DNA of 64,000 bases from an uncultured Aminicenantes bacterium (GCA_965195285.1 CBDAFS010000039.1:64001-128000); one strand, 5' to 3'; positions 951 to 19,176 are shown, counted from the stretch's first letter. The notes: generated by a model not told the origin, from the letters alone. Numbers and translations are program-made.

Positions 951-980
951 CTCGAATTGTCTAAATAGTATAGAGAAATT

Positions 981-1817: not shown

Positions 1818-1842
1818 TTTTTTTCTCTGATCTGTTAATCAA

Positions 1843-2754
1843 TTATACATTGAAGAATTCTTTTAAAATGGTTATCACATCCAGACCTGCTCTTTCCTGG
1901 CCCTCGACCGTTGATGCCCCCAGGTGAGGAGCTGGAAAGACCTTCTCATGATCAATCAGTTCAAACTGGTCCGGAGGTTCTTTTTCATAGACATCAAGGG
2001 CAACAGCTTTTAATTTATCTTCCTTCAATGTTCCCAACAAAGCCTTTTCATCCACCACACCGCCCCGGGCAACATTAATTAAAACGGCATTTTGCTTCAT
2101 TAAATCAAACTCCTTGGCGGATATCAGATTTTTGGTTGATTCATTCAGGGGCAGGTGTATGGAAATGAAATCCGATTTCATCAACAACTCTTCCAGCGAA
2201 ACCTGTTTGGCATTGATATCGGTTTGAATCTCCAGCATATCGCAAAACAGTACATTCATTCCCATGGCCAGTTCGCGTTTTGCAATTTCTTTTCCAATTC
2301 TTCCGAAACCAATAATGCCGGCCGTCTTTCCATAAACCTCCATACCTTTGGAAAAAAACTTCTTTTCCCATTTATGCTCTTTCATACTTTTATAAGCCGG
2401 CCCGACAAACCTGCATATTCCCAGCATCAGAGCCAATGTATATTCAGCAACCGTAATCGAAGTGGCAAAGGGGGTGTTCCGAACTTCAATTCCCTGTGAC
2501 TTGGCATATTCAACATCAACATTATCGAGACCGATACCGGCTCGAACTACTAATTTCAGATTCGATCCGTGTTCCAGTATTTCTTTCCTTAATTTGGTTG
2601 CACTCCTGATCACCACGGCATCGAATTTTCCGATCTCTCCCTTTAACACATCAGGTGCAAGGCCTGTATTTTCAATCACTTCAAATTCCGGAATTTCCTT
2701 TAATTGTTCTATGGCTTTGGGACTCAACTTGTCAGCCAATAATATTTTTATCAA
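1843..2754 (-). CDS. D-isomer-specific 2-hydroxyacid dehydrogenase (phosphoglycerate dehydrogenase-like, no ACT domain)
   Basis: RAGIGLDNVD, GIIGFGRIG, NVARGGVVDE, DVYEKEP, PHLGAST; TTG start with AGGAGG RBS. Confidence 0.88.
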   Translation of the reverse strand: MIKILLADKLSPKAIEQLKEIPEFEVIENTGLAPDVLKGEIGKFDAVVIRSATKLRKEILEHGSNLKLVVRAGIGLDNVDVEYAKSQGIEVRNTPFATSITVAEYTLALMLGICRFVGPAYKSMKEHKWEKKFFSKGMEVYGKTAGIIGFGRIGKEIAKRELAMGMNVLFCDMLEIQTDINAKQVSLEELLMKSDFISIHLPLNESTKNLISAKEFDLMKQNAVLINVARGGVVDEKALLGTLKEDKLKAVALDVYEKEPPDQFELIDHEKVFPAPHLGASTVEGQERAGLDVITILKEFFNV

Positions 2755-3063
2755 TTTTTATCCTCCTGTCCATTTTTTTGAACCATTAGAAAATTTCTCT
2801 GTATAAAAGAATCATTCTGTAATGGGAAGTGATTTTTTTAACGGTATTGAGTCCAACATCAACCCCTTTAACCATCCAGCAGAGCTCAAATCGTCTGTTT
2901 TTCATTTTTATCAAATTAGCATCATTAGGTTATCAAAATTTTGACTTGCTGTCAAGATTTAAAGTTGACCGGGTATATCTTTTCCCTTTACCTGCACAAC
3001 TTCCTGCTGTATAATAAACTGGTGACAGCCGGATAAGTTCGGTGCCCGAACGAGGTGATAATC

Positions 3064-3468
3064 ATGAAAAAAGAAGCCATTGAAAAGTATTTAAACCAAA
3101 TAAGAAAAAACGCCTCCTTTATTTCACCCGGGGTTCTGGAACCACTTCCATACAACAATGAAAAAGAAAACACATGGGTTGAGATAAAAAATCCGGAATT
3201 TACTTCCCTATGCCCCAAAAGCGGCTTGCCTGATTTTGGCTGTATTACCATTAAATACCTTCCGGACCGATATATTGTGGAATTGAAATCGTTAAAATAT
3301 TATTTTATTCAATTTAGAAATACCGGGATTTTCTATGAAAATCTGAATCAATTGATCCTCGATCACTTGGTGGAAGTGATCAAACCGATCGAAATGATCA
3401 TCCACTCAGAATTCACCCCCCGGGGTGGGATCAGTACCCGGATCACCTCTACCTATAAAAATAAATAG
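3064..3468 (+). CDS. queF: NADPH-dependent 7-cyano-7-deazaguanine reductase (type I QueF)
   Basis: PEFTSLCPKSGLPDF, VELKSLKYY and FTPRGG; GAGGTG RBS before ATG 3064. Confidence 0.93.
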   Translation: MKKEAIEKYLNQIRKNASFISPGVLEPLPYNNEKENTWVEIKNPEFTSLCPKSGLPDFGCITIKYLPDRYIVELKSLKYYFIQFRNTGIFYENLNQLILDHLVEVIKPIEMIIHSEFTPRGGISTRITSTYKNK

Positions 3469-3563
3469 GCTTCAGCATTATATGAAAACAATGAACATCC
3501 CGTGATTGGTAAAAAAGTTAAACTGGTAATATTATTAAGTTATCATGTACAGGTAAGGCCAAG

Positions 3564-4544
3564 ATGAGAGCATTGATAACCGGAGCCACCGGATTTATCG
3601 GAAGTCATTTATCCGAATGGTTATTGAAAAAAGGCTTTGAAGTCCATTGTTTGATTAGAAAAACCAGTAACCTGCGCTGGATCAGACCGCTTCAGATCCG
3701 CCTGATTGAAGCTGACTTCAGTGACAGCCAGTCTCTTAATCGGGCTGTAGCGGGTATGGATTACATATTCCATCTGGGGGCTGTTATCAACTCAAATCAG
3801 TGGGAGACCCATTTCCGTGTTAATTTCATGAATACAAAATATTTGATAGAAGCCTGTCTGCGAAACAATCTCAATTTGAAAAAATTTGTTCTGGTCTCCA
3901 GTATTGCGGCCATGGGACCGGGTGAAAAAGATAAGTTTATGATTGAAACCGATCCCTGTAAGCCCCGATCTTTATACGGTAAAAGCAAGAGACTGGCTGA
4001 AAAAATCGTTTTAAAATATAAAGATACCATTCCCACGGCCATCATCAGACCTCCCAATGTGCTGGGCCCGAGGCAAAGAGAAATATACCTGGCCGCCAAA
4101 CTCATCAAAATGCGATTGGTACCCCGTATCGGAAATGAAGACAAACAGACCAGCCTGTGTTATGTGGGCGATCTGGTCGAAGCCATACGATTGGTTGCAG
4201 AAAGAGAGGAAGCCAATGGGCAGATATATCTGGTCACCGATTCCAACACCTATGCCTGGAAGGAAATAAGCGACCAGATAGCCAAAGAACTTGGAACCGG
4301 GAAGCTATTCCTGCGAACTCCTTACTCCATTCAATATATTATTGCCTTCATTTCCGAAGCCATCTCCACCATGACCCGTTCCACTCCCATTCTAACCATA
4401 CAAGATTTGAAATCATCCAGACATTTTTACTGGTTATATGATGACTCCAAAATAAGAAGGGAATTGGGTTTTATATCAAAAACCGATATGAAACAAGCAG
4501 TCCGGAAGACCATCCAGTGGTACCGGGACCAGAATATGATCTGA
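3564..4544 (+). CDS. NAD-dependent epimerase/dehydratase (extended SDR)
   Basis: TGATGFIG, VSSIAA and YGKSK catalytic motif. Confidence 0.88.
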   Translation: MRALITGATGFIGSHLSEWLLKKGFEVHCLIRKTSNLRWIRPLQIRLIEADFSDSQSLNRAVAGMDYIFHLGAVINSNQWETHFRVNFMNTKYLIEACLRNNLNLKKFVLVSSIAAMGPGEKDKFMIETDPCKPRSLYGKSKRLAEKIVLKYKDTIPTAIIRPPNVLGPRQREIYLAAKLIKMRLVPRIGNEDKQTSLCYVGDLVEAIRLVAEREEANGQIYLVTDSNTYAWKEISDQIAKELGTGKLFLRTPYSIQYIIAFISEAISTMTRSTPILTIQDLKSSRHFYWLYDDSKIRRELGFISKTDMKQAVRKTIQWYRDQNMI

Positions 4545-4617
4545 TATTCTCAGTCCAGATTGACATCCTGGATTATTTGTGTTACTTAAATTTCTATTTA
4601 TTAATCAATTCGGTATC

Positions 4618-6339
4618 ATGTCAAGAAAAACAATTATATTACACTTATTATTTTGCTTTATGCTAACCGCGATATGGTCACCCCCGATTCTGCCTGGAGC
4701 CAGTGAAAAAAGAATTTTTTTTTCCACAATCGATTTGAACCGGAATTTCAGTTTAAAATTGGGTGATGCCACGATACAGCCGGTTGCATTTTTTTCTGAA
4801 TCCCTAACCGGGAAAACAATCAAAAGAACACTCTCCAACACCTATTTTCTCGGATTACCGGAAGAGGGTGTGCAAAAAAATTCGAAAAGATTCACGCGCG
4901 CACTACTTTTTAACTGTGGACTTATATTAATTAGTTCAGTTCATTACTGGATAAAGTACAGTGAATGGATTGAGGATTGGCAGTATGAACTAACCTGGGA
5001 AGACCAAAAAATCCGGTTTTTTTCTATGGAAGCACATCGATTCGATTCAAATCCTTTTTTTACCAACTGGTCCCACGCCCTTTCGGGTGCCGCCTACTAT
5101 AATTTTGCCCGCTATCACCGGTTGAATAAACTGGAATCACTTCTATTTATATTCGGCTCATCTTTATGGTGGGAATATTTTACTGAATGGCGCGAAGTGA
5201 TATCAATTAACGATACGATCTACTCTGGGATCGGCGGGGGACTATCAGTGGGAGAACCGCTGTACTGGATCGGGAGCTATTTTACACAAAAAAAGGGTAT
5301 TGGGAATAAAATACTCGGTTTTATTTTCAATCCGGTTGTAGCCATAAATGATTTGCTGGACAACAAAAAACATATGAGTTATCTCGACCTTCAGCGGTTT
5401 GCCAGGCCTGAATTCAATTTATTCATTGGCACCCAAATGGTATCCACCAGCGAAGATGAAAACAGCACCTCAACTCAATTTCATACCGGTCTCGACATTC
5501 GATTTTATACAATCGAAGGATACAGGGAACCCGGAACCGTAAATAAATTTATTAAAGACACCCTTTTAAGTGAATTATTTGTTGATTTAATCTTTGGAGC
5601 CAATACGTTAGAAGAGCACAGCATCTTTGCTAAAGCAGTTATATTCGGACATTTTATCCAAAAAATAAAACAAGACTCATACAAAAATCTAAAAGGGTAC
5701 AGCTTTTTTGCAGGTGCGGGTTCTGCCTTTGATTATTTTAAAAAAAGGGCTGTTGTTTATTATGACCAATTTGAATATCACTTTGACTTTGCCGGAGGAG
5801 AAGAAGCTCCTCAGCCCACTGAGTTTACTGATAAACTGGCCATAATAAATTTAATCGGGCCGGTTTTCGAACTTTCCATTTACTCAGGCCAGTTCGAATT
5901 CAGATCATCTATCAGTGCTTATATTGATTTTGCTCTATTGAATTCACTGGCTCTAAATGAATATTCAATTGATAATGATCTTTACGAACCACAAATGAAA
6001 ACCACACTTTCACACTATGGATATTACTATGCATTCGGATTTACATTTTCATCTGATATGGATTTGAATTATAAAAATATCCAGTTAAAAGGAAAAATAA
6101 AATACCAATACTACGACTCTATTGAAGGCCTGGACAGGTTTCAAGATGATGTGGAAGATGATTGCAATATCAGGGATACCCGGTTTATGTATAAAATCAG
6201 TCTTGGTTATGCCCTATCAAAAAGTCCGGTAACAATCCAGCTTGCCTATGAACATATTGACCGGGAAGGAACACTCAAGGACATCACCCATACCTTCTCG
6301 GAAGATCGAATTTACGCCCAGCTGAAAATTTCATTATAA
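4618..6339 (+). CDS. DUF3943-like exported/outer-membrane protein
   Basis: Signal peptide; FDSNPFFTNWSHALSGAAYYNFAR...SSLWWEYFTE...SINDT block; beta-strand-rich C-terminus. Confidence 0.55.
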   Translation: MSRKTIILHLLFCFMLTAIWSPPILPGASEKRIFFSTIDLNRNFSLKLGDATIQPVAFFSESLTGKTIKRTLSNTYFLGLPEEGVQKNSKRFTRALLFNCGLILISSVHYWIKYSEWIEDWQYELTWEDQKIRFFSMEAHRFDSNPFFTNWSHALSGAAYYNFARYHRLNKLESLLFIFGSSLWWEYFTEWREVISINDTIYSGIGGGLSVGEPLYWIGSYFTQKKGIGNKILGFIFNPVVAINDLLDNKKHMSYLDLQRFARPEFNLFIGTQMVSTSEDENSTSTQFHTGLDIRFYTIEGYREPGTVNKFIKDTLLSELFVDLIFGANTLEEHSIFAKAVIFGHFIQKIKQDSYKNLKGYSFFAGAGSAFDYFKKRAVVYYDQFEYHFDFAGGEEAPQPTEFTDKLAIINLIGPVFELSIYSGQFEFRSSISAYIDFALLNSLALNEYSIDNDLYEPQMKTTLSHYGYYYAFGFTFSSDMDLNYKNIQLKGKIKYQYYDSIEGLDRFQDDVEDDCNIRDTRFMYKISLGYALSKSPVTIQLAYEHIDREGTLKDITHTFSEDRIYAQLKISL

Positions 6340-6345
6340 ATCAAT

Positions 6346-7053
6346 CTACAATAACTTAAAAACATCCTCTTCCTTCAAGAGTTTTTCAGCACTTCCAGCA
6401 AAGGCAAATTTACCATTGCGCATCACATATCCCCTATCAACATACTGTAATGCCAGCCGGGCATTCTGTTCCACTATTAAAACTCCAATATCTTTTTTTA
6501 AAGCAACAAGTTTTTTAAATAGAATTTTCATATAATTGGGAGACAGGCCAGCAGTGGGTTCATCCAGGATGAGAAATTCCGGCTCTGTAATCAGAGACCG
6601 GGCCAATGAGAGTATCTGTCGTTCTCCCCCTGAAAGACTACCAGCAATACGTTTTAAAAGAGGTTCTAAAATTGGAAAAGTTCTGAGTACATTCTCAATC
6701 CTGGCAGCCAGTACTCCTCTATCTTCCATGGTATATCCACCCATTTCCAGGTTTTCGTGAACCGTCATCCCGGAAAATACCTTGCCTCCATCAGGTACAA
6801 AAGCGATTCCGGATCTAAATAACTCATAGGGTTTATTATGGATGATCGAAAGACTGTCTCTTTTAATGTCACCTTTTTTTATATACCCGTCATATGCATC
6901 TATTATGCCCACCAGGGATCTCAGCAAAGTGGTTTTTCCCGACCCGTTGGGCCCTAAAATAGCAACCATCTCACCTTTATTGATGATCATATTGATATCT
7001 TTAATGATATCAATATTGTTATAACCTGCAGTCAGACTTTTAACTTCTATCAC
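6346..7053 (-). CDS. livF: Branched-chain amino acid-type ABC transporter ATPase (LivF-like)
   Basis: GPNGSGKTT, LSGGERQ, ILDEP, VEQN. Confidence 0.85.
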   Translation of the reverse strand: MIEVKSLTAGYNNIDIIKDINMIINKGEMVAILGPNGSGKTTLLRSLVGIIDAYDGYIKKGDIKRDSLSIIHNKPYELFRSGIAFVPDGGKVFSGMTVHENLEMGGYTMEDRGVLAARIENVLRTFPILEPLLKRIAGSLSGGERQILSLARSLITEPEFLILDEPTAGLSPNYMKILFKKLVALKKDIGVLIVEQNARLALQYVDRGYVMRNGKFAFAGSAEKLLKEEDVFKLL

Positions 7054-7850
7054 TCCTCTCCTCCAAAGTAGGCATCAATGACTTTCTTATCTTCCAGAAC
7101 AACATTTGGTTTGCCATCCGCAATAACTTCACCTTTATCCAGAACAATGACCCGTTGTGCCACTTCCCGGACTGTTTGCATGTCATGTTCGGCAAAAACA
7201 ATGGTTTTACCTGATTTTCTCCATTCCCTAAACAGAGCAATAATTCTCTTCCTGATTTCCGGGAACACACCAGCAGTGGGTTCATCAAATAAAAACAGTT
7301 CCGAATCAAGCGCCCGGGCTCTCATTAACTCCAGCAATCTTCTCTGGCCATGGGATAGATTACCGGCCATTTCATGGGCCATATCATCCAGTTCTGCATT
7401 TTTTAAATACATCCTGGATTCCTCTTCTATTCGTGTACAACTATATTTTATAAAAGGATTTAATCCATAAAAAAGACCTTCTCTTTTTCTCTCTTCCAAA
7501 GCAATTAACATATTATCCATCACAGAAATTCCGGGAAATATTCTTCCAATCTGAAATGTTCGTCCGATTCCCCTTGCTGAAATATTGTAAGGTGAAAGTT
7601 TGACTATGTTTTGTCCCTTGAAATCAATAGATTTTGTATCTCTATTAGCATCCAGATAACCCATGATAACATTGATCAGGGTTGTTTTTCCGCTGCCATT
7701 TGGTCCGATAAGTGCTGTGATGGATTGTTTTTCGATATTCAAATTGAGTTTGCTTAATGCTCTAACACCATCAAAACTTTTACTCAAATTCCGGATGGAT
7801 AAAATATGATTTTCCAGATGATTTCCGTTTTTCGCACTCATTTTTATCAT
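7050..7850 (-). CDS. livG: Branched-chain amino acid-type ABC transporter ATPase (LivG-like)
   Basis: GPNGSGKTT, GRTFQ, LSHGQRR, DEPTAG, EHDM, VIDAYFG. Confidence 0.85.
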   Translation of the reverse strand: MIKMSAKNGNHLENHILSIRNLSKSFDGVRALSKLNLNIEKQSITALIGPNGSGKTTLINVIMGYLDANRDTKSIDFKGQNIVKLSPYNISARGIGRTFQIGRIFPGISVMDNMLIALEERKREGLFYGLNPFIKYSCTRIEEESRMYLKNAELDDMAHEMAGNLSHGQRRLLELMRARALDSELFLFDEPTAGVFPEIRKRIIALFREWRKSGKTIVFAEHDMQTVREVAQRVIVLDKGEVIADGKPNVVLEDKKVIDAYFGGEE

Positions 7851-7860
7851 TTTATAAGAG

Positions 7861-8730
7861 CTATTTCCACTTTACTTTTCCCAATATTCCCTGGGGCCGG
7901 AATATCATCAATATCACCAGGATTAATCCATATAACATCTGTCTGAGTTGTGCGGCAATGGATGAAGGCAATCCCAAAAATCTAAGAGCTTCCGGTATGG
8001 CTATTAAGAGAAAAGCACCCAGAATGGCGCCTCGAAGGGTTCCCATACCCCCAAAAATGACCATCAGCAGAATGGTAATGGATTCCATCACCGTAAAGCT
8101 CGAGGGATCAATAAAAGTGATATAATGGGCATATAATGCACCGGCAATTCCGGCAAAAAATGCGCCGGTCATAAACACCTTCAATTTAAAAAGAGGGGTG
8201 TTTTTTTTCAAAGCCCGGGCAGCTCGCTCATCTTCTCGGATGGCTTTCAAAACCCTTCCAAAAGGTCTTTTTACCAATAATATCAATAGGAAATAAGTAA
8301 TAAAAGCAATCAATGCTACAAAAATCAAATATTGCCAGACCTCACTGAATTCAAATCCAAAAACAGATAAAGCTGGAATACCGGGCAGACCCATGGGACC
8401 CCGGGTAAGAGATACCCAGTTTTTAGCCACCACATAAGCAATGATGCCAAAGCCAAAGGTTGCCAGAGCCAGGTAATCTCCCTTCATTTTTATGGCCGGA
8501 TAAGACACAATGGCTCCGGCAATGGAAGCCAAAATTCCACCTATAAGCATTCCCAGAAGAGGGGGAAATCCCAAATTTAAAGCCAGTAAGGTTGATGTAT
8601 AAGCTCCAACTAATGAAAAAGCAGCATGGCCAAGAGATGGGATACCGGTATAGCCGACTATGATATCAAGACTCATGGCCAGTATGGCATAAATCCCGAA
8701 TATCACTAATATATGTAAAAAATATTCCAC
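7861..8730 (-). CDS. livM: ABC transporter permease (LivM-like)
   Basis: GYTGIPSLGHAAF, GDYLALATFGF, LTRGPMG, FGRVLKAIREDE, RPQGILG. Confidence 0.88.
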   Translation of the reverse strand: MEYFLHILVIFGIYAILAMSLDIIVGYTGIPSLGHAAFSLVGAYTSTLLALNLGFPPLLGMLIGGILASIAGAIVSYPAIKMKGDYLALATFGFGIIAYVVAKNWVSLTRGPMGLPGIPALSVFGFEFSEVWQYLIFVALIAFITYFLLILLVKRPFGRVLKAIREDERAARALKKNTPLFKLKVFMTGAFFAGIAGALYAHYITFIDPSSFTVMESITILLMVIFGGMGTLRGAILGAFLLIAIPEALRFLGLPSSIAAQLRQMLYGLILVILMIFRPQGILGKVKWK

Positions 8731-8732
8731 GT

Positions 8733-9635
8733 TCAGCGCTCCTTTTTACCTAAAATTCCCTGGGGCCTGAACAACAGGAATATTAAAAATATTCCAAATA
8801 CAATGGCATCCTTCCATCCGGCAGGCATGAACCAAACAGCCAGGTTCTCGGTAAATCCCAGGAAAAGACTTCCAACCAGGGCTCCCCAGATGCTGCCAAT
8901 TCCTCCAATTATAACGGCAATGATTCCTTTTAACAGAATGTTAAATCCCATGGTGGGTTCCAGATTGGTTTCCAGGGATATCAGCACACCGGAAAGCCCG
9001 GCAATAGCCGAACCCAGTATGAATGCAAACAGTATGATTTTTTCCGGGTTTATTCCCACGATACTGGCTGTTATTGGATCATTAGACACCGCCCTCATGG
9101 CTTTTCCAATCTTGGTGTATCCGGTAATGAATAGAACAAAAATAAATACAACCATTGCTGAACCAATGATGAGAATCTGTATGGGTGTAATTATTCCACC
9201 CAGAAAATGTAGCCCTTCTTTAACCGGTCCGGTTCTCAAGGTTAAAATTTGATTGCCATAAATCATGGCAATCAGATTCTGGATAAAAATGAATATCCCA
9301 AAAGAGGCCAGAAGTAAAATTAAATTGGATGCCTTCCGTTTCCTTAAAGGCTTATAAACCATTCTGTCAATCAAAATCCCTGCAATCGCAGCTACAACCA
9401 TAGCTAACAAAGCAGCGAATATATATAAAAATATTGGAGATGCTTCAGAACTTCCCCTCCTGGACTCCCCTACCCACCAACTCATCAATGAAAAAGCAGT
9501 ATACGCCCCAACCGTATAAACCGCACCATGAGCCAGATGAAAAAACCTTATAGTGGAATATATTATCGAAAAGCTTGCTGCAACCAACAAATAATTTCCG
9601 ACTAAAATTAATGTATTAAAAAGTATCTGACTCAT
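8733..9635 (-). CDS. livH: ABC transporter permease (LivH-like)
   Basis: FHLAHG, TKIGKAMRAVS, IIGGIGS, FRPQGILG. Confidence 0.88.
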   Translation of the reverse strand: MSQILFNTLILVGNYLLVAASFSIIYSTIRFFHLAHGAVYTVGAYTAFSLMSWWVGESRRGSSEASPIFLYIFAALLAMVVAAIAGILIDRMVYKPLRKRKASNLILLLASFGIFIFIQNLIAMIYGNQILTLRTGPVKEGLHFLGGIITPIQILIIGSAMVVFIFVLFITGYTKIGKAMRAVSNDPITASIVGINPEKIILFAFILGSAIAGLSGVLISLETNLEPTMGFNILLKGIIAVIIGGIGSIWGALVGSLFLGFTENLAVWFMPAGWKDAIVFGIFLIFLLFRPQGILGKKER

Positions 9636-9714
9636 TTATGTTAACCAAACTTTTTATTTTAATTTTTTTCAATATGATTTGCAAAATAAATTTACTTTTT
9701 TTATATGCACTCTT

Positions 9715-10719
9715 TTACCATAAATCACCTATAACATTAGCAAAAGCAATCATTCCATTTTTTGCGGATGATGTCTTTAAAGAATTAAGACTCTCAATAG
9801 CTTCACTAGTATTAACTTTAATAATTCTTTTACATTGATCAATCGAACCGGAATCTTTGATTATCTCAAAACATTTTTTCAGACTTTTTTCATTATTTTT
9901 TTTACGTTTAAAAGTCTTTAATAAAAAATTTCTATCTTTTTCATTGGCAAGTTGTAAAGCCATTATAAATGGTAATCTCATTTTTTTCTGTTTTATATCT
10001 CCTCCTAATTGTTTTCCAATGAGTCTTACATTTCCAATAATTTCAAGAACATCATCTTTGATTTGGAAAGCAACTCCCAAAAATTTACCATAAGTAGAGA
10101 TTGAATTAATTTCCTTAATATTTCCTCCCCCAAGAATTGCTCCAATTTTCAAACTGCATATGATCAATGAAGCTGTGGTTTTTGAAATCATTTCCATATA
10201 TTGCTTTTCAGTGATGTTCTGATTGTATTCAAAATCTAAATCAAGAAACTGACCTATATATAATTCTTTATATGTTTCTTTTAATGTTTCTTCTGATTTT
10301 AATATCCTATTAACAGGAATCTTATCATTTGAATACAATTCAGACATTGCAGCATGTGCAACGCTATTTAGGATTTCACCTATTATTACTGCTTTTTTTG
10401 CACCATGAGCAGAATAAACTGATATAACTCCTCCTCTCAAGGATGATTCATCTAGAAAATCATCAATAATTAAAGTAGAAAAATGAAAAAGTTCAACAGC
10501 AATTGCTGCTGGTAGAATTATGTTATATTCACCTCCAACAGATTCACAGGCTAATTTCATCAAGAAGGGTCTTTCTCTATGTCCTTTAGGCTTTAATGCA
10601 AATTCAATTATCTTTTTTATTTTAATTTTTTGAATATTTAAAAACTTGAAAATTTCATCATCAATTATTTTACTATTCTCTTTAAATATTCTATTGATAG
10701 ATTGGTGTAAATTTATCAT
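9715..10719 (-). CDS. Polyprenyl diphosphate synthase family protein (trans-isoprenyl diphosphate synthase fold)
   Basis: RERPFL, FARM DDFLD, GQFLD, KTTASL, second Asp-rich motif FQIKDDVLE, GKQLGGD. Confidence 0.85.
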   Translation of the reverse strand: MINLHQSINRIFKENSKIIDDEIFKFLNIQKIKIKKIIEFALKPKGHRERPFLMKLACESVGGEYNIILPAAIAVELFHFSTLIIDDFLDESSLRGGVISVYSAHGAKKAVIIGEILNSVAHAAMSELYSNDKIPVNRILKSEETLKETYKELYIGQFLDLDFEYNQNITEKQYMEMISKTTASLIICSLKIGAILGGGNIKEINSISTYGKFLGVAFQIKDDVLEIIGNVRLIGKQLGGDIKQKKMRLPFIMALQLANEKDRNFLLKTFKRKKNNEKSLKKCFEIIKDSGSIDQCKRIIKVNTSEAIESLNSLKTSSAKNGMIAFANVIGDLW

Positions 10720-10739
10720 AATGAAGAATATAATCTAAA

Positions 10740-10898
10740 TCAATCAACTTCATATTTAATTTCAGATTCTGGCCTTTTTTTAGAGTTCTTAATTTTAAAT
10801 AAAAACCTTTTTTTCATTAGATCAAAAAGCTTTTTTGTTTTCAAATGTTTTTTTAAGATACGCTTAGTTGGCTTTTCTCCGAGAACCAATTGTGCCAT
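10740..10898 (-). CDS. Small lysine-rich protein, 52 aa (not in the ORF track)
   Basis: GGAGG 7 nt before ATG; MAQLVLGEKPTKRILKKHLKTKKLFDLMKKRFLFKIKNSKKRPESEIKYEVD*; fills the gap between co-oriented genes. Confidence 0.6.
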   Translation of the reverse strand: MAQLVLGEKPTKRILKKHLKTKKLFDLMKKRFLFKIKNSKKRPESEIKYEVD

Positions 10899-10925
10899 TC
10901 AAATTCCTCCATATCCATATTAATA

Positions 10926-11720
10926 CTAATATTGAATATACTGCAATTTCTCAAATGTTTCAATTTGAGTTGAATAACTCCCTGCTTTCGTTTTTCCTGC
11001 AGTAATCACTAATTTTACTTTATTCTTTAATTCAAAATCCTTCTTAAGATCAATTGTTGAAATTGCTAATATATCATCTGCTAAAGCAAAATCTCTAATT
11101 TCAATATTATTATTGAGTACATCTTTTCTATTACAAACTTTTAAAGTTATATTAGCTTCTTTGGAATTTTGCCCGAGCAGACTTTTCTCTAACTTTTTGT
11201 ATGTAATTGTCTCATTAGTAGGTATTATATATCGTGTTTTTTTGATATCTTTTACTTTTAAGAGATTATTATATTCTTTTAGATGTTCGTTATATTTATA
11301 CCAATCACTTAGATGAATTGTATAGGTGGTTTCCCATTTTTTTTCTGCGAAATATAATCCACTAATCAAAAATTTTATATACTCCTCACATGTTACATTA
11401 AAAGGAATTTCAATTTCATTTCCTTTTAAAGCTGAATTCAGTATTGTGAATATTATAATTTTTGACTTTGTTAATGCACTTATATTACATTCTTTTAATA
11501 CTTTGAGTAGATTGGGGCAGATATTTTTATATTCCAAAATAAATGAAGTAGTGAAGTAAGAAACAATAGCTATACTTATGAGGCCAAGATAATAATATAA
11601 AAGTTTTGAGATAGAGCTATCATCAGGTGTGTTTATAATTACATCAAAAATAAATGTTATAAGTAATGAAAAAAATATCGAAAATAGAATATTTGAAGTA
11701 TTTTTTAATTTATCTTTCAT
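10926..11720 (-). CDS. Hypothetical protein with two N-terminal TM helices and a soluble domain
   Basis: Two hydrophobic N-terminal segments; TRYII and RDFALADD motifs; in operon order between livK and the prenyltransferase. Confidence 0.7.
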   Translation of the reverse strand: MKDKLKNTSNILFSIFFSLLITFIFDVIINTPDDSSISKLLYYYLGLISIAIVSYFTTSFILEYKNICPNLLKVLKECNISALTKSKIIIFTILNSALKGNEIEIPFNVTCEEYIKFLISGLYFAEKKWETTYTIHLSDWYKYNEHLKEYNNLLKVKDIKKTRYIIPTNETITYKKLEKSLLGQNSKEANITLKVCNRKDVLNNNIEIRDFALADDILAISTIDLKKDFELKNKVKLVITAGKTKAGSYSTQIETFEKLQYIQY

Positions 11721-11737
11721 AATTATTATTGGTTATA

Positions 11738-12862
11738 TTATTCATATATTTGAAACTTCCCACCCCTTACAATTTTGATTACAGCTTGTTGAATCACATC
11801 ACCATTTTTATCAAATGTTGTATCACCAACAATTCCTGGATAATGCTTTACTGTATATATATAATTTTTAATACTTTCCGCAGTTAATTCAGCATTTGAT
11901 TCTAATATCGCCAATGATATAATCTTAATAGCATCATAACTCAAGGCAGCAAAAATATCTGGTTCCACATTATATTTATCTACATATTTTTTTACAAATT
12001 TTTTGATATTATGGGCATTACTTTTTGGATCATAAGTTCGAGCTGAATATATAACACCTTCGGCAGAATCACCTGCAATCTTAAGAATCTCAGGATCCTC
12101 AAACATCACAGTGCTTAAAAACTGTTTGTTAATGTCAAGCTCTCTTGATTGTCTAAGTAATTGCGCTAGTTCTTTATAGCCGATAATATAGATTGCATCT
12201 GGATTATACTTTTTTATTTTAGATAATTGTAAACGAAAATCTGTAGTTCCTTGATCAAAAGTTTCTGAAATCAAGATTTCTCCGCCTAATTTTATATAAT
12301 TTGTGGTAAATACATCTTTTATTCCTAAGCCATAGTCATTATTTACATAAAGAATAGCAACTTTTTCCAATTTCATTTTTCTAATTGAAAATTCAGCCAT
12401 AATATTCCCTTCAAAAATATCAGATGCACAATTTCGAAAAATATAATCACCAGCATTAGTTATTTCAGGTGCAGAAGATGTTGGAGAAAGTAATACAACT
12501 TTGTTTTTATTCAAAATTGGCGATACTGCCAAAGTCACACTACTGAACAAACCACCAATTATAACTGGTACATTATGTGTTGATATCAACATTTGAACTG
12601 CTAAAACACCTGTTTTTGGATCACCTTTTGAATCTTCAAAAATTACTTCGATTTTTTTCTTAGTACTTTTTTTTTCATTTATTTCATCAATAGCAAGATT
12701 AATAGCATTTTTTGCTGTTTCCCCATATTTAGCACCATCTCCAGTTAAAGGCATAATAGCGCCAATCTTTATTACAGTTTCCTCTTTTATTGGTTTACAA
12801 CTTTGAGCACAAATAATCAACAATACTAAACAGACTGCTAATGAATAATTTTTTTTACTCAT
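11738..12862 (-). CDS. livK: ABC transporter substrate-binding lipoprotein (LivK-like)
   Basis: Lipobox AQSC, KIGAIMPLTGDGAKYG, FEDSKGDP, NNDYG, TTFDKNGD; GGAGG RBS. Confidence 0.85.
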   Translation of the reverse strand: MSKKNYSLAVCLVLLIICAQSCKPIKEETVIKIGAIMPLTGDGAKYGETAKNAINLAIDEINEKKSTKKKIEVIFEDSKGDPKTGVLAVQMLISTHNVPVIIGGLFSSVTLAVSPILNKNKVVLLSPTSSAPEITNAGDYIFRNCASDIFEGNIMAEFSIRKMKLEKVAILYVNNDYGLGIKDVFTTNYIKLGGEILISETFDQGTTDFRLQLSKIKKYNPDAIYIIGYKELAQLLRQSRELDINKQFLSTVMFEDPEILKIAGDSAEGVIYSARTYDPKSNAHNIKKFVKKYVDKYNVEPDIFAALSYDAIKIISLAILESNAELTAESIKNYIYTVKHYPGIVGDTTFDKNGDVIQQAVIKIVRGGKFQIYE

Positions 12863-13102
12863 AAAAACCTCCCAACAACCTTAATTATAAAATTAATTAA
12901 ATCAAATTCAAAAAAAAAAGTCAAATTGAAAAAAGTATTTTCATAAATTAATATACATAAACATTTAAATAAGAAGAATTGAATAAATTCGATTTAAAAT
13001 CCCAATTCAAATATTGACAAAAAAAAAGAATTTATTAATAATACAAATGGGATACAGAATTTATTTCTTATAGTTAAAATTAGTTTTTTCAAAATAAAAC
13101 AA

Positions 13103-14335
13103 ATGTATTACATAGAACTATTTTCAGGTGCCGGTGGATTATCCGAAGGTTTCATAAAAGCAGGGTTTAAACCAATAGCCCATATTGAGATGGATAAAAA
13201 TTCATGTTGTACATTAAAAACCAGACATGCTTATCACTATTTAAAAAAAAAGAGGAAACTGGATATATATCAATCCTATTTAAAAAAAGAAATATCACGC
13301 GAAGATTTGTATTCAACAATCCCTGATGATTTAATTGAATCAATTATAGAGACAGAAATTACAGAAAATAATCTAAAACTTATTTTCAATAAAATAAAAT
13401 ATTTTCAAAAAAGTAAAAGTATATCAGATATTGATTTAATTATTGGGGGCCCTCCCTGTCAGGCATATTCAACCATTGGAAGAGCAGCAACAAAAAACAA
13501 AAAGTCTTTTGACCTTAGAAATTATTTGTATCAACTATACGGTCGTTTTTTATTGGAATTCAAACCAAAATTATTCTTATTTGAAAATGTACCGGGTATA
13601 AAAACAGCAGGAAATGGTCAGTATTATTGTAGTTTGAAGGACGAATTCAGAAATTTTGGATATGAAATTGAAGATAGAATGCAAAATGCTGCAGATTATG
13701 GCGTCATACAGAGAAGAGAAAGAGTTATCATAATTGGCTGGCGGAAGGATATACAGTTTAGATATCCTGAATTTGAGAATATTGAGAATAAATGGACGGT
13801 TAAGGATATATTATTCGATTTACCTGAATTGAAAGCTGGAGAATCAATTAATATTGGAAAGTATATAAGTAAACCATCTGAATATATAAAAATGTTCAAT
13901 ATCCGTAATGGAAGTGATATTTTGACCCAACATATAGCTAGACCTCATAATAAAAAAGATTTAAGAATTTATAAACTGGCAATTGAAAAGTGGAACAAAA
14001 ACCATAAGAGAATAATGAATTTCGAAATTCCAGACAAAATTAGAACCCAGAAAAACATTTCATCATTCCTTGATCGATTTAAAGTTGTATCAAAAGATGA
14101 TTTATCACATACATTAATAGCTCATATAGCAAAAGATGGACATCATTATATTCATCCGGATATTGAACAGTTAAGATCTATTAGTATTAGGGAAGCAGCA
14201 AGGATCCAATCTTTCGAAGATAATTACTATTTTGAAGGCCCAAGAACTTCTATTTTTAATCAAATTGGAAATGCAGTCCCTCCACTCTTGTCCTATGCTA
14301 TTGCTTCAAAAATAAGGGATATTATAAATGTCTAA
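13103..14335 (+). CDS. DNA (cytosine-5)-methyltransferase
   Basis: FSGAGG (motif I), GGPPCQ (IV), ENV (VI), QRRER (VIII), REAARIQSF (IX), GNAVPP (X). Confidence 0.95.
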   Translation: MYYIELFSGAGGLSEGFIKAGFKPIAHIEMDKNSCCTLKTRHAYHYLKKKRKLDIYQSYLKKEISREDLYSTIPDDLIESIIETEITENNLKLIFNKIKYFQKSKSISDIDLIIGGPPCQAYSTIGRAATKNKKSFDLRNYLYQLYGRFLLEFKPKLFLFENVPGIKTAGNGQYYCSLKDEFRNFGYEIEDRMQNAADYGVIQRRERVIIIGWRKDIQFRYPEFENIENKWTVKDILFDLPELKAGESINIGKYISKPSEYIKMFNIRNGSDILTQHIARPHNKKDLRIYKLAIEKWNKNHKRIMNFEIPDKIRTQKNISSFLDRFKVVSKDDLSHTLIAHIAKDGHHYIHPDIEQLRSISIREAARIQSFEDNYYFEGPRTSIFNQIGNAVPPLLSYAIASKIRDIINV

Positions 14336-16424
14336 AGAGCTAGCTTTTAAGCCCAAGGCAAGATTATTGTTACAATTAGGTGAACAACTAATCCGTAATG
14401 AAAGCATAGCACTTATGGAAATTATCAAAAATTCATATGATGCTGATGCCTCTAAAGTATCAATATCCATGAAAAATGTTGATGACACAAAAAAAGGTGA
14501 AATAATCATTGAAGATAATGGTATCGGAATGGATGAAAGAATTATAGAAGATGTATGGATGCAACCAGGAAGTAATTATAAATCATCATTATTTGAAAAA
14601 AGAGTTAGAACCGTAAAATATAAAAGATTACCAATAGGAGAAAAGGGAATTGGAAGATTTGGGGTACACCGTCTGGGTCAGGAAATTGAGATAATCAGCA
14701 AGAAAGAAGGTAAAAATGAAGTTTATTTAAAAATTAATTGGAGTAAATTTGAGAAAGATGACTTTTTGTCAAATATAAAAGTAAATTTATTTGAAAGACT
14801 ACCTCAATATTTTCTTAAGGGAAATACAGGTACTAAAATAATAATTAATAAACTACGAAAATCCTGGAGTCGTATTGAAGTGAGAGAATTATATAGATCA
14901 ATAAACACTTTGAATTCCCCTTTTAAATCATATGACTCTTTCGAAGTTGACTTTTCAATTGATAAAAAGAAATGGTTAGAAGGACTTCTTTCATTTGATG
15001 ATATAAAAAAATATGCCCTTTATTATTCCATAGCCTCTATTGAAGGAAATGAAATCAAAGATTTCAAGTATGAATTCCGTCCCTGGGATACAATGGTAAA
15101 ACTAAATGAAAGGAAAGTTGAAGATAAGCATATCAGGATGGTAAAAAAGATTTATGATGAAGAAAAAAGAAAAAATGTTTATGTTGATATTGATCTAAAT
15201 AAATCTAAAATAGGAAAGATAAGTTTTGAGATTTTAATTTTCGATAGGGAAAGAAGAATATTATCTTTAGGAGTTACCGATAGAAAAGGATTTGATGAAT
15301 ACCTAAATGAAAATGGTGGTATAAGGGTTTTCAGGGATGGAATTAGAATATATGATTATGGTGAAAAAAGTAATGATTGGCTTGACCTTGACATAAAAAG
15401 AGTTAATCGACCCGGGGAAACAATTAGTAATAATCTTGTTATGGGTGCAGTCTATCTTGATCGAGAAAGTAGTACTGATTTAGTTGAAAAAACAAATAGA
15501 GAAGGTTTCATTGAAAATAATGCGCTATCTGAATTTATATTGGCTATTGATTTTGCTTTAAACAATATTTTGACATATAGAAGTATTGATAAAAATAAAG
15601 TCAGAACAATATATAGTAATATTGATACAAATGAACCTGTTACTGAAAATTTGCGAGAACTGAAGAACAAAATAGAAAAAAATATTGAAAAAGGGGAATT
15701 TAAAAAGGAACTATTAAAAACAATAAAAAACATTGATAAAGATTACAAATATATAAAAGAGATTTATGTAAAAAGCGCTAGTGCTGGTTTAAGTCTTAGT
15801 ATTGTCATCCACGAAGTTGAAAAAATTTTAGCAGAATTGGTAAAAATAGTAGAAGCAACAGGATCAAGAGAAAGAATAAAATTTCTAGTAAACCACCTCG
15901 ATAAAATTGTTAATGATTATGCAACCATAATTAAACAAAGCAAAAAGGAAAAAAGTAATCTAAAATCTCTCATCGATCAATCTCTTTTCAATTTAACCTA
16001 TAGGATTAAGGCACATAATCTGAACGTAATCAGATCTTACGAAAAATATAAAGAAAATCCAGTTGTTACATGCGCACAAAATTTGGTAATAAGCGTAATC
16101 ATGAATATCATTGATAATTCAATCTTCTGGATAAATTATGCAAATAGACAAGTAAAAAAACTATATATCACATTAACCGATGAAATACCGGAACATACTT
16201 CAATATTAATTGCAGATAATGGTCCGGGATTTCATATTTCTCCAGAAGACGCAATAAAGCCCTTTATAACGGAAAAACCAGGAGGTATGGGGCTAGGATT
16301 ACATCTCGCAGATGAAGTTATGAATGCACAGGGCGGAAAACTATTATTTCCTGAAAAATTTGATTTCAAGCTACCAGTAGACCTTCAAAATGGTGCAAAA
16401 ATTTTACTAGCTTTTAAAAATTAA
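14328..16424 (+). CDS. MORC/MutL-type GHKL ATPase fused to a C-terminal histidine kinase
   Basis: N-terminal EIIKNSYDADA, DNGIGM, GEKGIGRF, GTKIII; C-terminal H-box IHEVEK, N-box NIIDNS, DNGPG, PFITEKPGGMGLGL. Confidence 0.88.
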   Translation: MSKELAFKPKARLLLQLGEQLIRNESIALMEIIKNSYDADASKVSISMKNVDDTKKGEIIIEDNGIGMDERIIEDVWMQPGSNYKSSLFEKRVRTVKYKRLPIGEKGIGRFGVHRLGQEIEIISKKEGKNEVYLKINWSKFEKDDFLSNIKVNLFERLPQYFLKGNTGTKIIINKLRKSWSRIEVRELYRSINTLNSPFKSYDSFEVDFSIDKKKWLEGLLSFDDIKKYALYYSIASIEGNEIKDFKYEFRPWDTMVKLNERKVEDKHIRMVKKIYDEEKRKNVYVDIDLNKSKIGKISFEILIFDRERRILSLGVTDRKGFDEYLNENGGIRVFRDGIRIYDYGEKSNDWLDLDIKRVNRPGETISNNLVMGAVYLDRESSTDLVEKTNREGFIENNALSEFILAIDFALNNILTYRSIDKNKVRTIYSNIDTNEPVTENLRELKNKIEKNIEKGEFKKELLKTIKNIDKDYKYIKEIYVKSASAGLSLSIVIHEVEKILAELVKIVEATGSRERIKFLVNHLDKIVNDYATIIKQSKKEKSNLKSLIDQSLFNLTYRIKAHNLNVIRSYEKYKENPVVTCAQNLVISVIMNIIDNSIFWINYANRQVKKLYITLTDEIPEHTSILIADNGPGFHISPEDAIKPFITEKPGGMGLGLHLADEVMNAQGGKLLFPEKFDFKLPVDLQNGAKILLAFKN

Positions 16425-16439
16425 ATAGGGGGTACAATA

Positions 16440-17771
16440 TTGATGTATCATATTGATATACCTAAGAATGGATCCGTAGTAATTATAGATGATAAAATCA
16501 AAGAAGTTATACCTTTATTTAATATACTTTCAAAAGCTGGAATTTCCTTTACTTATTATTCAGGTACTGATCTTGAAGAATTACCTGAAAAACCTATCCA
16601 AACGATAAGGGCAGTTTTTCTTGATATTCAATTAATACCTGCTTTAAATGCTCATAGCTATTCACAAATGGCTCTAAATTTGCTTGAAAAAATTATTCCA
16701 GACGATAATGGTCCTTATATTCTGTTAATCTGGAGTACAAATCAAAGGCAATATGCAGAAACACTTGAAGCACAGATTATAGGCCCTAATTATTCAAGAA
16801 GACCAGCAATAATAATACATTTAGATAAAATAGATTATTTTAAACAAGAAATACTACAAAAAAATAGTAACACACAAGAAGTGAAATTTATCCCTAAATC
16901 TGATGCATTTAAATCTATCACAAAAAAAATAAATTCTGAATTAGAAAAGGTTAAGGTTTTCCACCTTTTCACCTTATGGTCCGATATAATAAATAATTCT
17001 GCAAATGAACATGTAAACAATTTTCTAACTCTATTTCCTTATGATAATCAATGGCAAAATAATCTGAAGAAAACAATATTTAAATTAGCAAAAGCTGTTG
17101 CGGGTGATACAATTAATAATATAGAAGATGATGAAAAAATCAAATACGCTTTTTTTTCTTTAAATAGAACATTAATAGATACAATCGAAAAAAATACTAA
17201 TCTTAATTTCAAAATCAGCTTAAAAAACATTAAAAATGGAGTAATTAATCAGTCGATTATAGCAGATATAAATTCAAAATTACATCTAATGCTAATAAAT
17301 AGTGATTGGAAAATTAAAACTGGTAACCTTTATATTATTCCTCAAAACCACACAAGAATATATTCAGAACATTTGGATCTAATTATTTCTGAAAGAAATT
17401 TCAAAGCAACAAGATGTGAAGAAATAAAACTTAATAGACCAAAACTATTTAGACTGGATATAACTCCAGTTTGTGACTATGCACAGGATAAAGGATATGT
17501 GAGATTTCTATATGGTTTTATTATTGATTCAAGATTTGAGGATGAGGTTAAAAAGAAAAATTTTAATAATTATGTTAGTCCATTATTATACATTAATAAC
17601 AAAATTGTGTTTCTATTCATTGATTTTAGATTTTCAAACTCTGTCCAAAATGAAAAAAAATTCAATATAAAACTAAAACCAAATTTTGTTGTAAAAAAGG
17701 AGATCATTACAGATATGCAAACACACTTTTCACATTATATAAATAGACCTGGGATTATCAAAGTAGAGTGA
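16440..17771 (+). CDS. Receiver-domain protein with a long C-terminal region of unknown function
   Basis: VVIIDD, FLDIQL (phospho-Asp), LIWST and LDK receiver motifs; C-terminal DITPVCDYAQDK and YINRPG. Confidence 0.75.
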   Translation: MMYHIDIPKNGSVVIIDDKIKEVIPLFNILSKAGISFTYYSGTDLEELPEKPIQTIRAVFLDIQLIPALNAHSYSQMALNLLEKIIPDDNGPYILLIWSTNQRQYAETLEAQIIGPNYSRRPAIIIHLDKIDYFKQEILQKNSNTQEVKFIPKSDAFKSITKKINSELEKVKVFHLFTLWSDIINNSANEHVNNFLTLFPYDNQWQNNLKKTIFKLAKAVAGDTINNIEDDEKIKYAFFSLNRTLIDTIEKNTNLNFKISLKNIKNGVINQSIIADINSKLHLMLINSDWKIKTGNLYIIPQNHTRIYSEHLDLIISERNFKATRCEEIKLNRPKLFRLDITPVCDYAQDKGYVRFLYGFIIDSRFEDEVKKKNFNNYVSPLLYINNKIVFLFIDFRFSNSVQNEKKFNIKLKPNFVVKKEIITDMQTHFSHYINRPGIIKVE

Positions 17772-18541
17772 AAAAGAAAAGTCCTGGTTGGTCTTATAAT
17801 GAACTTTTGGTCGCCTTTAATTTGTACTGTAAAATTCCTTTTTCGAAAATAAATTATAGAAAAAAAGAAATAGTTAAGCTCGCAAAATTGATTAATAGGA
17901 CCCCATCAGCAGTTGCATTAAAACTTGCTAATTTTTCAAGGTTTGATCCAGAACTAAAATCCCGTCAAATTTCAGGTATGACGCATGGAAGTAAAGAAGA
18001 AGAAATAATATGGAATGAATTCAATGAAAACCAGGAAAGATTTGTTTATGGGAGTGAGAAAATACTTGCTCATTATAAAGATCAAACACTTGAAAAATCT
18101 TTTGACCTGGATATTGAATTGCTTGTAAAAGATGGAAAAGAACGTGAGGCAATTGTAAAAATGAGAGTGAATCAGAGTTTCTTCAGGAAAATGATTCTGG
18201 CGTCATATAACAATATGTGCTGTATAACCGGAATTTCTATATCCGATTTACTGGTGGCCAGTCATATAATTCCATGGTCTATTGATATAAAAAATAGAAT
18301 GAATCCAAAAAATGGCATTTGTTTAAATGTTTTACATGATAAAGCTTTTGATAAGGGGCTGATAACCATTACTCCGGATTATAAAATAATGATATCACCT
18401 CAATTAAAAAATAATAGGAACAAGTTTTCAGAATTATTTTTCTTAAAATATGAAGAATCTAAAATAATTCTACCACAGCGATTCTTTCCGGATATTGAAT
18501 TTTTAAAATATCATAACAAACACATCTTTCAAAAAAATTGA
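17768..18541 (+). CDS. HNH endonuclease with N-terminal helical domain
   Basis: RVNQSFFRKMILASYNNMCCITG, LLVASHIIPWS, NPKNGICLNVLHDKAFDKG. Confidence 0.9.
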   Translation: MKKKSPGWSYNELLVAFNLYCKIPFSKINYRKKEIVKLAKLINRTPSAVALKLANFSRFDPELKSRQISGMTHGSKEEEIIWNEFNENQERFVYGSEKILAHYKDQTLEKSFDLDIELLVKDGKEREAIVKMRVNQSFFRKMILASYNNMCCITGISISDLLVASHIIPWSIDIKNRMNPKNGICLNVLHDKAFDKGLITITPDYKIMISPQLKNNRNKFSELFFLKYEESKIILPQRFFPDIEFLKYHNKHIFQKN

Positions 18542-19176
18542 ATAAGCAACTAAAAAAATCAAGAAGAATCTTAATAAAAAATTGGGATAAATATAAAAGA
18601 GATTTCATCTGGAGATACTTTAAAGATCCTTATAAAATAATGATTGCTGAATTTATGCTCCAGAGGACAAAAGCCCCTCAGGTAGAACCGGTATATAAAA
18701 ACTTTCTGGAAAAGTATCCTGATGTTTTCATTCTTTCTAGAGCAAAACATAAATCAATTTCAAAATTTACTACAAATCTAGGATTACATGGGAGAAGCCG
18801 GAACTTTATTGAAGCTTCGAAATTTATAATAAAAAAATATACTGGTAATTTCCCATCTACCAGAAAAGAATTGTTAAAAATTCCGGGTATCGGTGATTAT
18901 GTTGCTGGAACTATTCTTACAATATGCTTTAATAAACAGGAATATGTTATAGATAGTAATATTGCCAGATTCATTAATCGTTTTTGGGGCTTAAATTTAT
19001 CAGGAGAAATAAGAAGAAAAAAAATAATAATCTCACTTGCAACAGAATTGTTTAAATATAAAAATACAAGAGATTTATTATTCTGCTTATTGGATTTTTC
19101 AGCCTTAATATGTAAACCCCGAAATCCAGTATGCGAAACTTGTGTTTTGAGAAAACCTTGTTTCTTCTATCAATGA
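18538..19176 (+). CDS. HhH-GPD DNA glycosylase with [4Fe-4S] cluster, Mig/T:G-mismatch type
   Basis: RDFIWR, EFMLQRT, HhH PGIGDY, catalytic IDSN, CKPRNPVCETCVLRKPC; lacks the MutY C-terminal domain. Confidence 0.8.
   Translation: MNKQLKKSRRILIKNWDKYKRDFIWRYFKDPYKIMIAEFMLQRTKAPQVEPVYKNFLEKYPDVFILSRAKHKSISKFTTNLGLHGRSRNFIEASKFIIKKYTGNFPSTRKELLKIPGIGDYVAGTILTICFNKQEYVIDSNIARFINRFWGLNLSGEIRRKKIIISLATELFKYKNTRDLLFCLLDFSALICKPRNPVCETCVLRKPCFFYQ

Follow-up and report, generated by a model that had tools for sequence, protein, structure and literature searches.

The stretch of DNA analyzed here (the window) comprises 64,000 nt from an uncultured Aminicenantes bacterium (GCA_965195285.1 CBDAFS010000039.1:64001-128000; positions are counted from its first letter) and contains an operon of five genes, all on the plus strand, which an earlier note had described as a phosphorelay-controlled defense system. 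The genes encode a C5 cytosine DNA methyltransferase (13103..14335, 410 amino acids (aa)), a soluble fusion of a GHKL ATPase with a histidine kinase (14328..16424, 698 aa), a receiver protein with a predicted toxin-like domain and no Pfam family (16440..17771, 443 aa), an HNH_2 nuclease (17768..18541, 257 aa), and a putative Mig/MutY-type HhH-GPD mismatch glycosylase (18538..19176, 212 aa). All five open reading frames (ORFs) listed in that note were recovered as one co-oriented operon, and the junctions, described there as three overlaps and one 15-bp gap, were an 8-nt overlap, a 15-nt gap, and two 4-nt overlaps in that order. The gap precedes the receiver gene and contains a GGGGG ribosome-binding stretch 5′ of the start codon. 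Comparison with related loci indicated that the methylase, kinase, and receiver genes form the conserved part of this operon, with the HNH nuclease as an optional accessory.

A locus search with the single kinase sequence found nothing, so that an alignment of kinase relatives (A2) was needed. The scan of species-representative genomes with A2 yielded 543 loci encoding a kinase relative, and the best 80 of these, spanning many bacterial phyla and two archaea, were kept for the counts. The ORFs at these loci were called and grouped into clusters, 28 of which were named from a Pfam scan of one representative each. At 74 of the 80 loci, the gene immediately following that of the kinase encoded the receiver protein, two of the six misses being contig ends. 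A co-oriented C5 methylase gene immediately preceded the kinase gene at 59 loci, and 71 had a C5 methylase gene within −4 to +5 genes. Most of the adjacent methylases (49 of 60) were 42-57% identical to that of the window, and 11 were below 33%. The exact five-gene order recurred at a single locus (L006), and an HNH_2 gene was found near the kinase in 13 loci, in 11 of which it lay directly 3′ of the receiver gene. These two counts rule out the five genes as one fixed system; the co-occurrence expected by the earlier note was found for the methylase-kinase-receiver triad and failed for the full set of five. By gene neighborhood, the triad is the apparent conserved core of the cassette. More distant members were encoded on Burkholderia, Rhizobium, Agrobacterium, and Campylobacter plasmids, likewise adjoining cytosine methylases. 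Among the 55 loci with full flanks, the operon ended at the receiver gene in 24, and no recognized nuclease cluster was nearby in 18. We therefore propose that an effector lies inside the core, many of the cassettes offering no other candidate gene.

The kinase contains HATPase_c_3 at aa 27-152 and HATPase_c at aa 586-674 (PF02518, E 4.5e-16). The family profile A2 matched the N-terminal domain of HtpG/TRAP1 (Hsp90) at aa 4-133 and HK853-type kinases at aa 517-675 (E 2-3e-6), and its positions 463-681 aligned to the kinase ThkA (3a0r). The N-terminal MORC/MutL/Hsp90-type ATPase domain (14406..14783) carries the motifs E31xxKNxxDA39, D63xGxGM68, and G104EKGIGRFG112, which are kept in 79-80 of 81 kinases, the remainder being gaps, and these are the Bergerat-fold motifs of the MORC and paraMORC GHKL ATPases. 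The H-box on the dimerization and phosphotransfer helix (15810..15824) has H495 and E496 in all 81 kinases, in agreement with the earlier note, which had considered the His motif intact. The histidine-kinase catalytic (CA) domain with its N, G1, and G2 boxes (16083..16349), assigned by PF02518 and conserved residues, retains N593, N597, D630, G634, G653, G655, and G657 in 81/81 and G632 in 79/81. The EKTNREGF loop, invariant in 81/81, is a candidate for the S5-fold transducer. As the note had stated, there is no membrane sensor; no membrane segment was detected in the kinase, whose highest 19-residue Kyte-Doolittle mean was 1.46.

The kinase search gave 3481 proteins at E ≤ 0.001 among 8000 candidates, the 120 relatives listed being 50-60% identical to the protein of the window, and mean column identity was 65% in a 25-row alignment across phyla. 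An EcoRII-N DNA-binding domain was fused to the kinase N-terminus in four of eight long family members scanned, which suggests that the GHKL module may sense unmethylated DNA. Such fusions with the B3-like EcoRII-N domain occur at L061:7467-10097 and L078:7440-10109 and in the proteins P0074 and P0122; the methylases next to the L061 and L078 kinases share only 23-26% identity with that of the window.

Alternatively, as annotation derived from REBASE presumes, the kinase could itself be an ATP-dependent restriction enzyme, cutting unmethylated DNA in a type II-like restriction-modification system of which the receiver protein would be a subunit or regulator. In PADLOC, the kinase matched restriction-enzyme and MzaB models only, and its N-terminal 130-180 residues matched the 'type II restriction enzyme' model PDLC03419 (E 4e-12) and, far below the cut-off, the BbrUII/HgiDII family of NCBIfam (E 1.6e-25). 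A putative enzyme listed in REBASE with a GHKL N-terminus and a histidine-kinase C-terminus has been reported (Orlowski and Bujnicki, 2008; PMC2441816), and restriction-modification systems typically show such close linkage with a methylase gene and a gene for deamination repair. However, these matches are limited to the ATPase domain, Pfam and NCBIfam scans detected no nuclease family anywhere in the 698-aa protein, and the invariant H-box and CA motifs favor phosphotransfer over cleavage. We therefore regard this explanation as decidedly unlikely.

With a cut-off as lenient as E 10, the receiver protein still matched no Pfam, NCBIfam, or PADLOC model, and it was examined by structure prediction. 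The full-length AlphaFold2 model had a predicted local distance difference test score (pLDDT) of 85.9, and aa 156-443, modeled separately on a 70-row alignment, reached 90.5. The N-terminal part is predicted to be a CheY-like receiver domain (16452..16889) in both fold and residues, with the phospho-acceptor D62 encoded at 16623-16625. VIA-align ranks 1-14 were all receiver domains (top match 6tg7 CheY, Z 10.2, root-mean-square deviation 3.0, 120 residues), and Foldseek, matching at aa 5-175, reached E ≤ 0.001 five times, each time with the response regulator PorX. D62 and K130 were present in 75/75 sequences, S/T99 in 73/75, D17 in 72/75, and D18 in 68/75, which bears out the intact Asp motif claimed previously. 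The sequence model PF00072 matched neither the receiver protein nor its family members. A four-helix linker follows (16905..17285; helices at aa 156-196, 205-227, 230-256, and 271-282), which gave only generic helical fold matches (Z ≤ 5.2) and varies in length, with insertions of ~100 aa in homologues of 520-545 aa.

The C-terminal domain (aa 290-438, 17307..17753) is predicted to be a β-barrel of the MazF/Kid/CcdB type. For this region, VIA-align ranks 1-12 consisted entirely of toxins (MazF, Kid, CcdB, or CptN; Z 8.0 to 5.7), with as many as 113 of 115 target residues covered, and the next match on the region had only Z 4.2. Foldseek returned almost only MazF and CcdB chains, with probabilities of 0.98-0.99 and a best E of 0.015. 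N278, G295, C345, and D346 were conserved in 72/72 ungapped sequences, R436 and G438 in 71/71, and R355 in 69/72; K351, R355, and G359 are nearly invariant. Since sequence methods give no link to MazF or CcdB, the toxin assignment is a predicted one at the level of the fold. The likeness to the MazF/Kid/PemK and CcdB toxins lies in this predicted fold, which makes a cell-arrest role plausible, whereas sequence similarity is lacking and extra helices are inserted in the barrel of the window protein. Those toxins are paired with an antitoxin; the domain of the window is instead fused to a receiver domain. The family is large: a word-indexed search found 29 receiver relatives, and profile A3, run against 1.84 billion protein representatives, matched 2142 of them at E ≤ 0.001, including 1188 with E ≤ 1e-30, all 150 matches listed aligning across nearly the whole profile. 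A complex prediction with two copies of kinase aa 470-698 and receiver aa 1-155 scored 0.00 in both runs and counts neither way. A literature search, too limited to prove the point unpublished, found no receiver-MazF fusion in an anti-phage context.

The HNH protein was correctly named in the earlier note. It matched PF13391 (HNH_2) at aa 151-201 (E 4e-13) and, over its full length, the PADLOC HNH model PDLC04132 (E 3e-93). The closest solved chain to its catalytic region (aa 122-214) is 6yex (E 1.6e-10), the modification-dependent EVE-HNH enzyme VcaM4I (PMC7897488), and a match to the NCBIfam phosphorothioate-DNA-dependent restriction endonuclease had E 6.5e-19, below the cut-off. Since HNH_2 accompanies the kinase in so few of the 80 loci and the operon often ends at the receiver gene, the HNH nuclease is unlikely to be the gated effector proposed before and is better viewed as an optional DNA-cutting accessory in a minority of cassettes. 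Other nucleases were seen at the related loci. In L014 and L022, an AspBHI-like modification-dependent enzyme (RE_AspBHI_N + Mrr_cat) follows the receiver gene, and in L057 such an enzyme lies nearby on the opposite strand.

The kinship of the HNH protein to modification-dependent enzymes keeps alive a reading in which the receiver protein, once phosphorylated by a kinase that detects infection, is only a transcriptional regulator inducing the methylase and an HNH effector that cuts modified DNA. Transcriptional control of this kind is the working model for Ambrosia (AbrR-AbrA-AbrB-AbrC-AbrD), which according to a 2025 preprint comprises an XRE protein, an N6 methylase, a HATPase kinase, a REC protein, and a type IV HNH protein and protects Pseudomonas aeruginosa from phages, all parts being required (bioRxiv 10.1101/2025.09.30.679545). 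The receiver mutation D60A is reported to abolish defense, and reporter genes inside the cluster to be induced upon infection (bioRxiv 10.1101/2025.09.30.679545). The statement in the earlier note that no mechanistic characterization of such a gene set was known is outdated, since Ambrosia is reported to be protective in a receiver-Asp-dependent manner. The likeness to the window is one of architecture only, in the gene order of methylase, HATPase/histidine kinase, receiver, and HNH and in the receiver Asp (D60 versus D62), and the HNH gene of the window overlaps the receiver gene by 4 nt. By its description, Ambrosia differs in having an N6-adenine methylase, an XRE regulator, and a receiver with a reported winged helix, whereas the window has a C5 methylase, a repair glycosylase, a receiver protein with a predicted MazF/CcdB-like domain, and no XRE gene. 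Against transcriptional control, Pfam and fold searches found no helix-turn-helix (HTH) or winged helix in the receiver protein, HNH_2 occurs in only 13 loci, no ORF with an HTH lies in or next to the operon, and small HTH genes were near 16 of the 80 loci. In our judgment, this reading is rather unlikely for the operon of the window. On a Klebsiella plasmid, an N6-methylase locus contains a broken kinase, a piece of which matches the family profile at E 6e-23, together with weak REC-like and HNH matches. A search in the Pseudomonadales, the order of genome G406, matched 1 of 286 genomes, G406 itself, and was uninformative as it covered small genomes only.

The first and last genes of the operon were as previously identified. 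The methylase matched PF00145 (E 2e-60) and TIGR00675 dcm (E 3e-50), its top PADLOC model was DrmMII PDLC02649 (E 1.5e-164, full length), and it has intact motifs I, IV, VI, and X (FSGAGG at aa 7-12, PPCQ at aa 117-120, ENV at aa 161-163, and QIGNAV at aa 387-392), in keeping with the C5 methylase claimed. The last gene product, claimed to be a T:G glycosylase and probably one, has an HhH-GPD domain, and its closest solved relative is the G-T mismatch repair enzyme 1KEA (E 3e-39, full length); it also matched the PADLOC 'type II nicking endonuclease' model PDLC03398 (E 1e-40). It keeps the HhH motif PGIG (aa 116-119), the catalytic Asp139 in IDSN, and the iron-sulfur loop Cx6Cx2Cx5C (aa 192-208), and with no MutY C-terminal domain it has the features of a Mig/MutY-type HhH-GPD enzyme. 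1KEA is Mig.MthI, a T/U:G mismatch glycosylase whose gene adjoins a GGCC methylase gene on a Methanothermobacter plasmid. The two resemble each other in size (212 versus 221 aa), HhH, catalytic Asp, four-Cys iron-sulfur loop, and C5 methylase neighbor, and differ in that the glycosylase of the window is embedded in a kinase-receiver cassette. Vsr was encoded in 34 of the 80 loci, an HhH-GPD glycosylase in nine, and both in none. Because the two are mutually exclusive across related loci, the glycosylase is the putative Mig-type stand-in for Vsr, acting on T:G mismatches that arise by deamination of 5-methylcytosine.

The methylase, HNH, and glycosylase genes each have separate full-length PADLOC restriction-modification models, and HNH_2 proteins of 255-259 aa make large clusters of their own, so that the operon might consist of two unrelated modules that happen to be adjacent. 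However, the kinase-receiver pair accompanies a methylase in 59-71 of the 80 loci, across phyla, on plasmids, and with or without HNH, and overlapping stop and start codons tie the genes of the operon together. We consider two unrelated modules highly improbable.

The design of the cassette is not new, as an architecture of methylase, GHKL-histidine kinase, and receiver is already in print. Bellieny-Rabelo, Pretorius, and Moleleki (2021; PMC8011034) described it in purely computational work as HEF_HK plus Response_reg_2, the two genes being linked in 91.6% of 644 regions, with C5 methylases upstream and HNH_2 and Vsr as frequent neighbors. As described there, the HEF_HK elements share with the window a soluble kinase composed of HATPase_c_3, a His-Glu H-box, and HATPase_c, an adjacent receiver-like protein with no other known domain, an upstream C5 methylase, and HNH_2 and a deamination-repair gene as frequent partners. 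They differ in the repair gene, Vsr there and HhH-GPD in the window, and in that their Pfam models PF19191 and PF19192 match neither protein of the window. By hmmscan, PF19191 (HEF_HK) gave no match to the kinase at E ≤ 10, and a search of the genome with it gave four weak matches elsewhere and none in the window. PF19192 matched neither the receiver protein at E ≤ 10 nor any of the 70 rows of alignment A3 (69 full-length relatives); on true members, taken from 8 of 401 Bacteroidota-class genomes, it works at E 1e-30 to 1e-35. These true Response_reg_2 proteins (528-581 aa) were not hit by the hidden Markov model of the receiver family, and the profile-profile comparison of the two families was not significant (E 0.038, probability 1.4%). 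The true Response_reg_2 C-termini have a similarly placed invariant Cys-Asp and a C-terminal Q..R.G, and an atlas search with the C-terminal domain returned, as leads, unnamed clusters (0.90-0.91) and a Response_reg_2-bearing cluster (0.78). A distant kinship of the two receiver families is thus a possible lead. The Results and Discussion of the 2021 paper leave the receiver's C-terminal domain undescribed (PMC8011034). What appears to be new here is the predicted fold of the receiver output domain together with the comparative demotion of the HNH nuclease. The earlier note had credited the two-component link to Iyer et al. (2008), whose main text contains neither 'receiver' nor 'two-component' (PMC2292703); on these word counts, that source was rejected.

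Our tentatively favored explanation, held with somewhat less than even confidence, is that the operon is a horizontally acquired, methylation-linked defensive two-component cassette whose effector, gated by phosphorylation, is the receiver protein, with the HNH nuclease in an accessory role. The methylase would mark the host's own DNA. The N-terminal MORC/Hsp90-type ATPase module, dimerizing with ATP, would serve as the input, probably on unmarked DNA or an infection cue, and would drive autophosphorylation of H495, from which the phosphoryl group would be transferred to D62 of the receiver protein. MazF, Kid, and CcdB function as homodimers, and dimerization upon phosphorylation is common among receiver domains. 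Dimerization of the receiver may unite two C-terminal MazF/CcdB-like domains as an active toxin dimer, an RNase or a gyrase poison, which would halt the growth of the invaded cell. HNH_2 would be an add-on effector that may contribute DNA cleavage in the window, and the glycosylase would do the job of Vsr. The proposal builds on the intact ATPase, H-box, CA domain, and receiver pocket, on the adjacency of kinase and receiver, and on the methylase and deamination-repair genes that travel with them. The sensed signal, the phosphotransfer, the activity and target of the toxin, and a defense function in the source organism are what we infer from these parts. Of the phosphorelay-controlled defense originally claimed, the His-Asp relay with a methylase stands on precedent and conservation, and the HNH nuclease as gated effector and the five-gene unit do not.

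The same logic, a histidine kinase acting on a receiver-fused effector, is found in Detocs (DtcA/DtcB/DtcC), which Rousset et al. are said to have described in 2023 as an abortive infection system whose histidine kinase senses infection and phosphorylates a fusion of a receiver with a toxic effector. Detocs reportedly differs in lacking both a methylase and a GHKL-MORC input and in using a nucleoside phosphorylase-like domain as its effector. The PADLOC scan of the window proteins gave no DtcA, DtcB, or DtcC row, and the release used may hold no Detocs models.

Several observations weigh against the favored reading. The toxin fold is a prediction, its Z of 8.0 is middling for the tool, and Foldseek gave no match at E ≤ 0.001. 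Profile A1 run against PDB sequences returned one irrelevant match (E 7.7) and neither MazF nor CcdB, Pfam scans of the receiver protein and its family gave no PemK or CcdB, and a word-limited search found no stand-alone homologue of the C-terminal domain. We know of no MazF counterpart of the invariant Cys-Asp pair. On the input side, per-column conservation of the kinase at ~65% across phyla argues against a variable sequence-reading element. The operon of the window does include an HNH nuclease, whose gene is coupled in translation to that of the receiver, and this nuclease could be the main effector here. Finally, the authors of the Ambrosia preprint favor transcriptional control, and AbrA methylation is reported not to protect phages (bioRxiv 10.1101/2025.09.30.679545). 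The further claim that the widespread triad is a self-contained, methylation-licensed abortive infection system is doubtful. In it, phosphorylation-driven dimerization would activate the toxin-like domain of the receiver when the MORC-like clamp encounters DNA without the 5-methylcytosine mark of the cassette, and nucleases such as HNH and MBL would be extras that can replace one another. The probability left over by the favored reading and the three alternatives above goes to something else.

Should the receiver protein be a toxin gated by phosphorylation, an immune device would be encoded by a very common cassette that lies beside Dcm methylases and is at present annotated as an 'ATP-binding protein' and a 'hypothetical protein'. 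An epigenetic mark would be read and answered by cell arrest instead of DNA cutting, and self/non-self marking of the restriction type would be joined to a toxin-type output via a His-Asp relay. An effector other than a methylation-sensitive nuclease might also bear on the lack of phage protection by methylation in Ambrosia, within the limits of an architecture-level likeness. The receiver family, with its 2142 cluster representatives and no Pfam model, is in itself an annotation gap.

The operon was horizontally acquired, since its guanine-cytosine (GC) content is 28.8%, compared with 39.6% at positions 1-9600 and 42.9% at 19177-64000 of the window, and a full-length kinase orthologue was found in only 1 of 40 relatives of the source genome (same class, other family) and in none of three same-genus genomes (completeness 91, 70, and 87%). 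An AT-rich block with a GC content of 27.1% lies directly upstream (9641-12862) and encodes, on the minus strand, a polyprenyl synthase, an unknown 264-aa protein, and a LivK-like binding protein; together with the defense operon, it makes up a single low-GC stretch from 9.6 to 19.2 kb. No integrase was found at the borders of this island, the flanking repeats were only AT-rich chance matches, none of them convincing, and a tRNA scan of positions 1-30000 found none. A promoter-like site (TTGACA, 17 nt, AATAAT; 13014..13042, plus strand) is located 60 nt upstream of the methylase start, with 11 of 12 consensus matches and the top score on its strand. Because such sites are not enriched in the region (35 versus 40.8 ± 7.4 in shuffles), its assignment as the promoter is weak.

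Among the related loci, Mza-type genes were near 11 of 80, and such genes (HATPase_c_3, Z1, DUF4420, AIPR) are often beside the cassette, as in L011, L014, L016, L017, L020, L030, L031, L075, and L081. The kinase gene stands without a receiver gene in L016, L017, L020, and L076. A sister cassette on a Hymenobacter volaticus plasmid (L101, 4646-9780) is one co-oriented run of an N6 methylase, a GHKL-histidine kinase (687 aa), an unknown 227-aa protein, and an MBL-fold hydrolase. The search for distant members included 43 Campylobacter plasmid records, and on a conjugative plasmid of Campylobacter armoricus (L102, 6001-10451), the gene for a 731-aa GHKL-histidine kinase precedes that for a 340-aa protein, which carries a response-regulator annotation and weakly matches PF00072 and cREC_REC; a convergent cytosine methylase gene adjoins. 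In L080 and L082, Tn7-like transposition genes (Mu-transposase C, TniB, TnsD/TniQ, and TnsE-C) lie directly upstream of the kinase-receiver pair, which suggests that the pair is carried as transposon cargo at these two loci.

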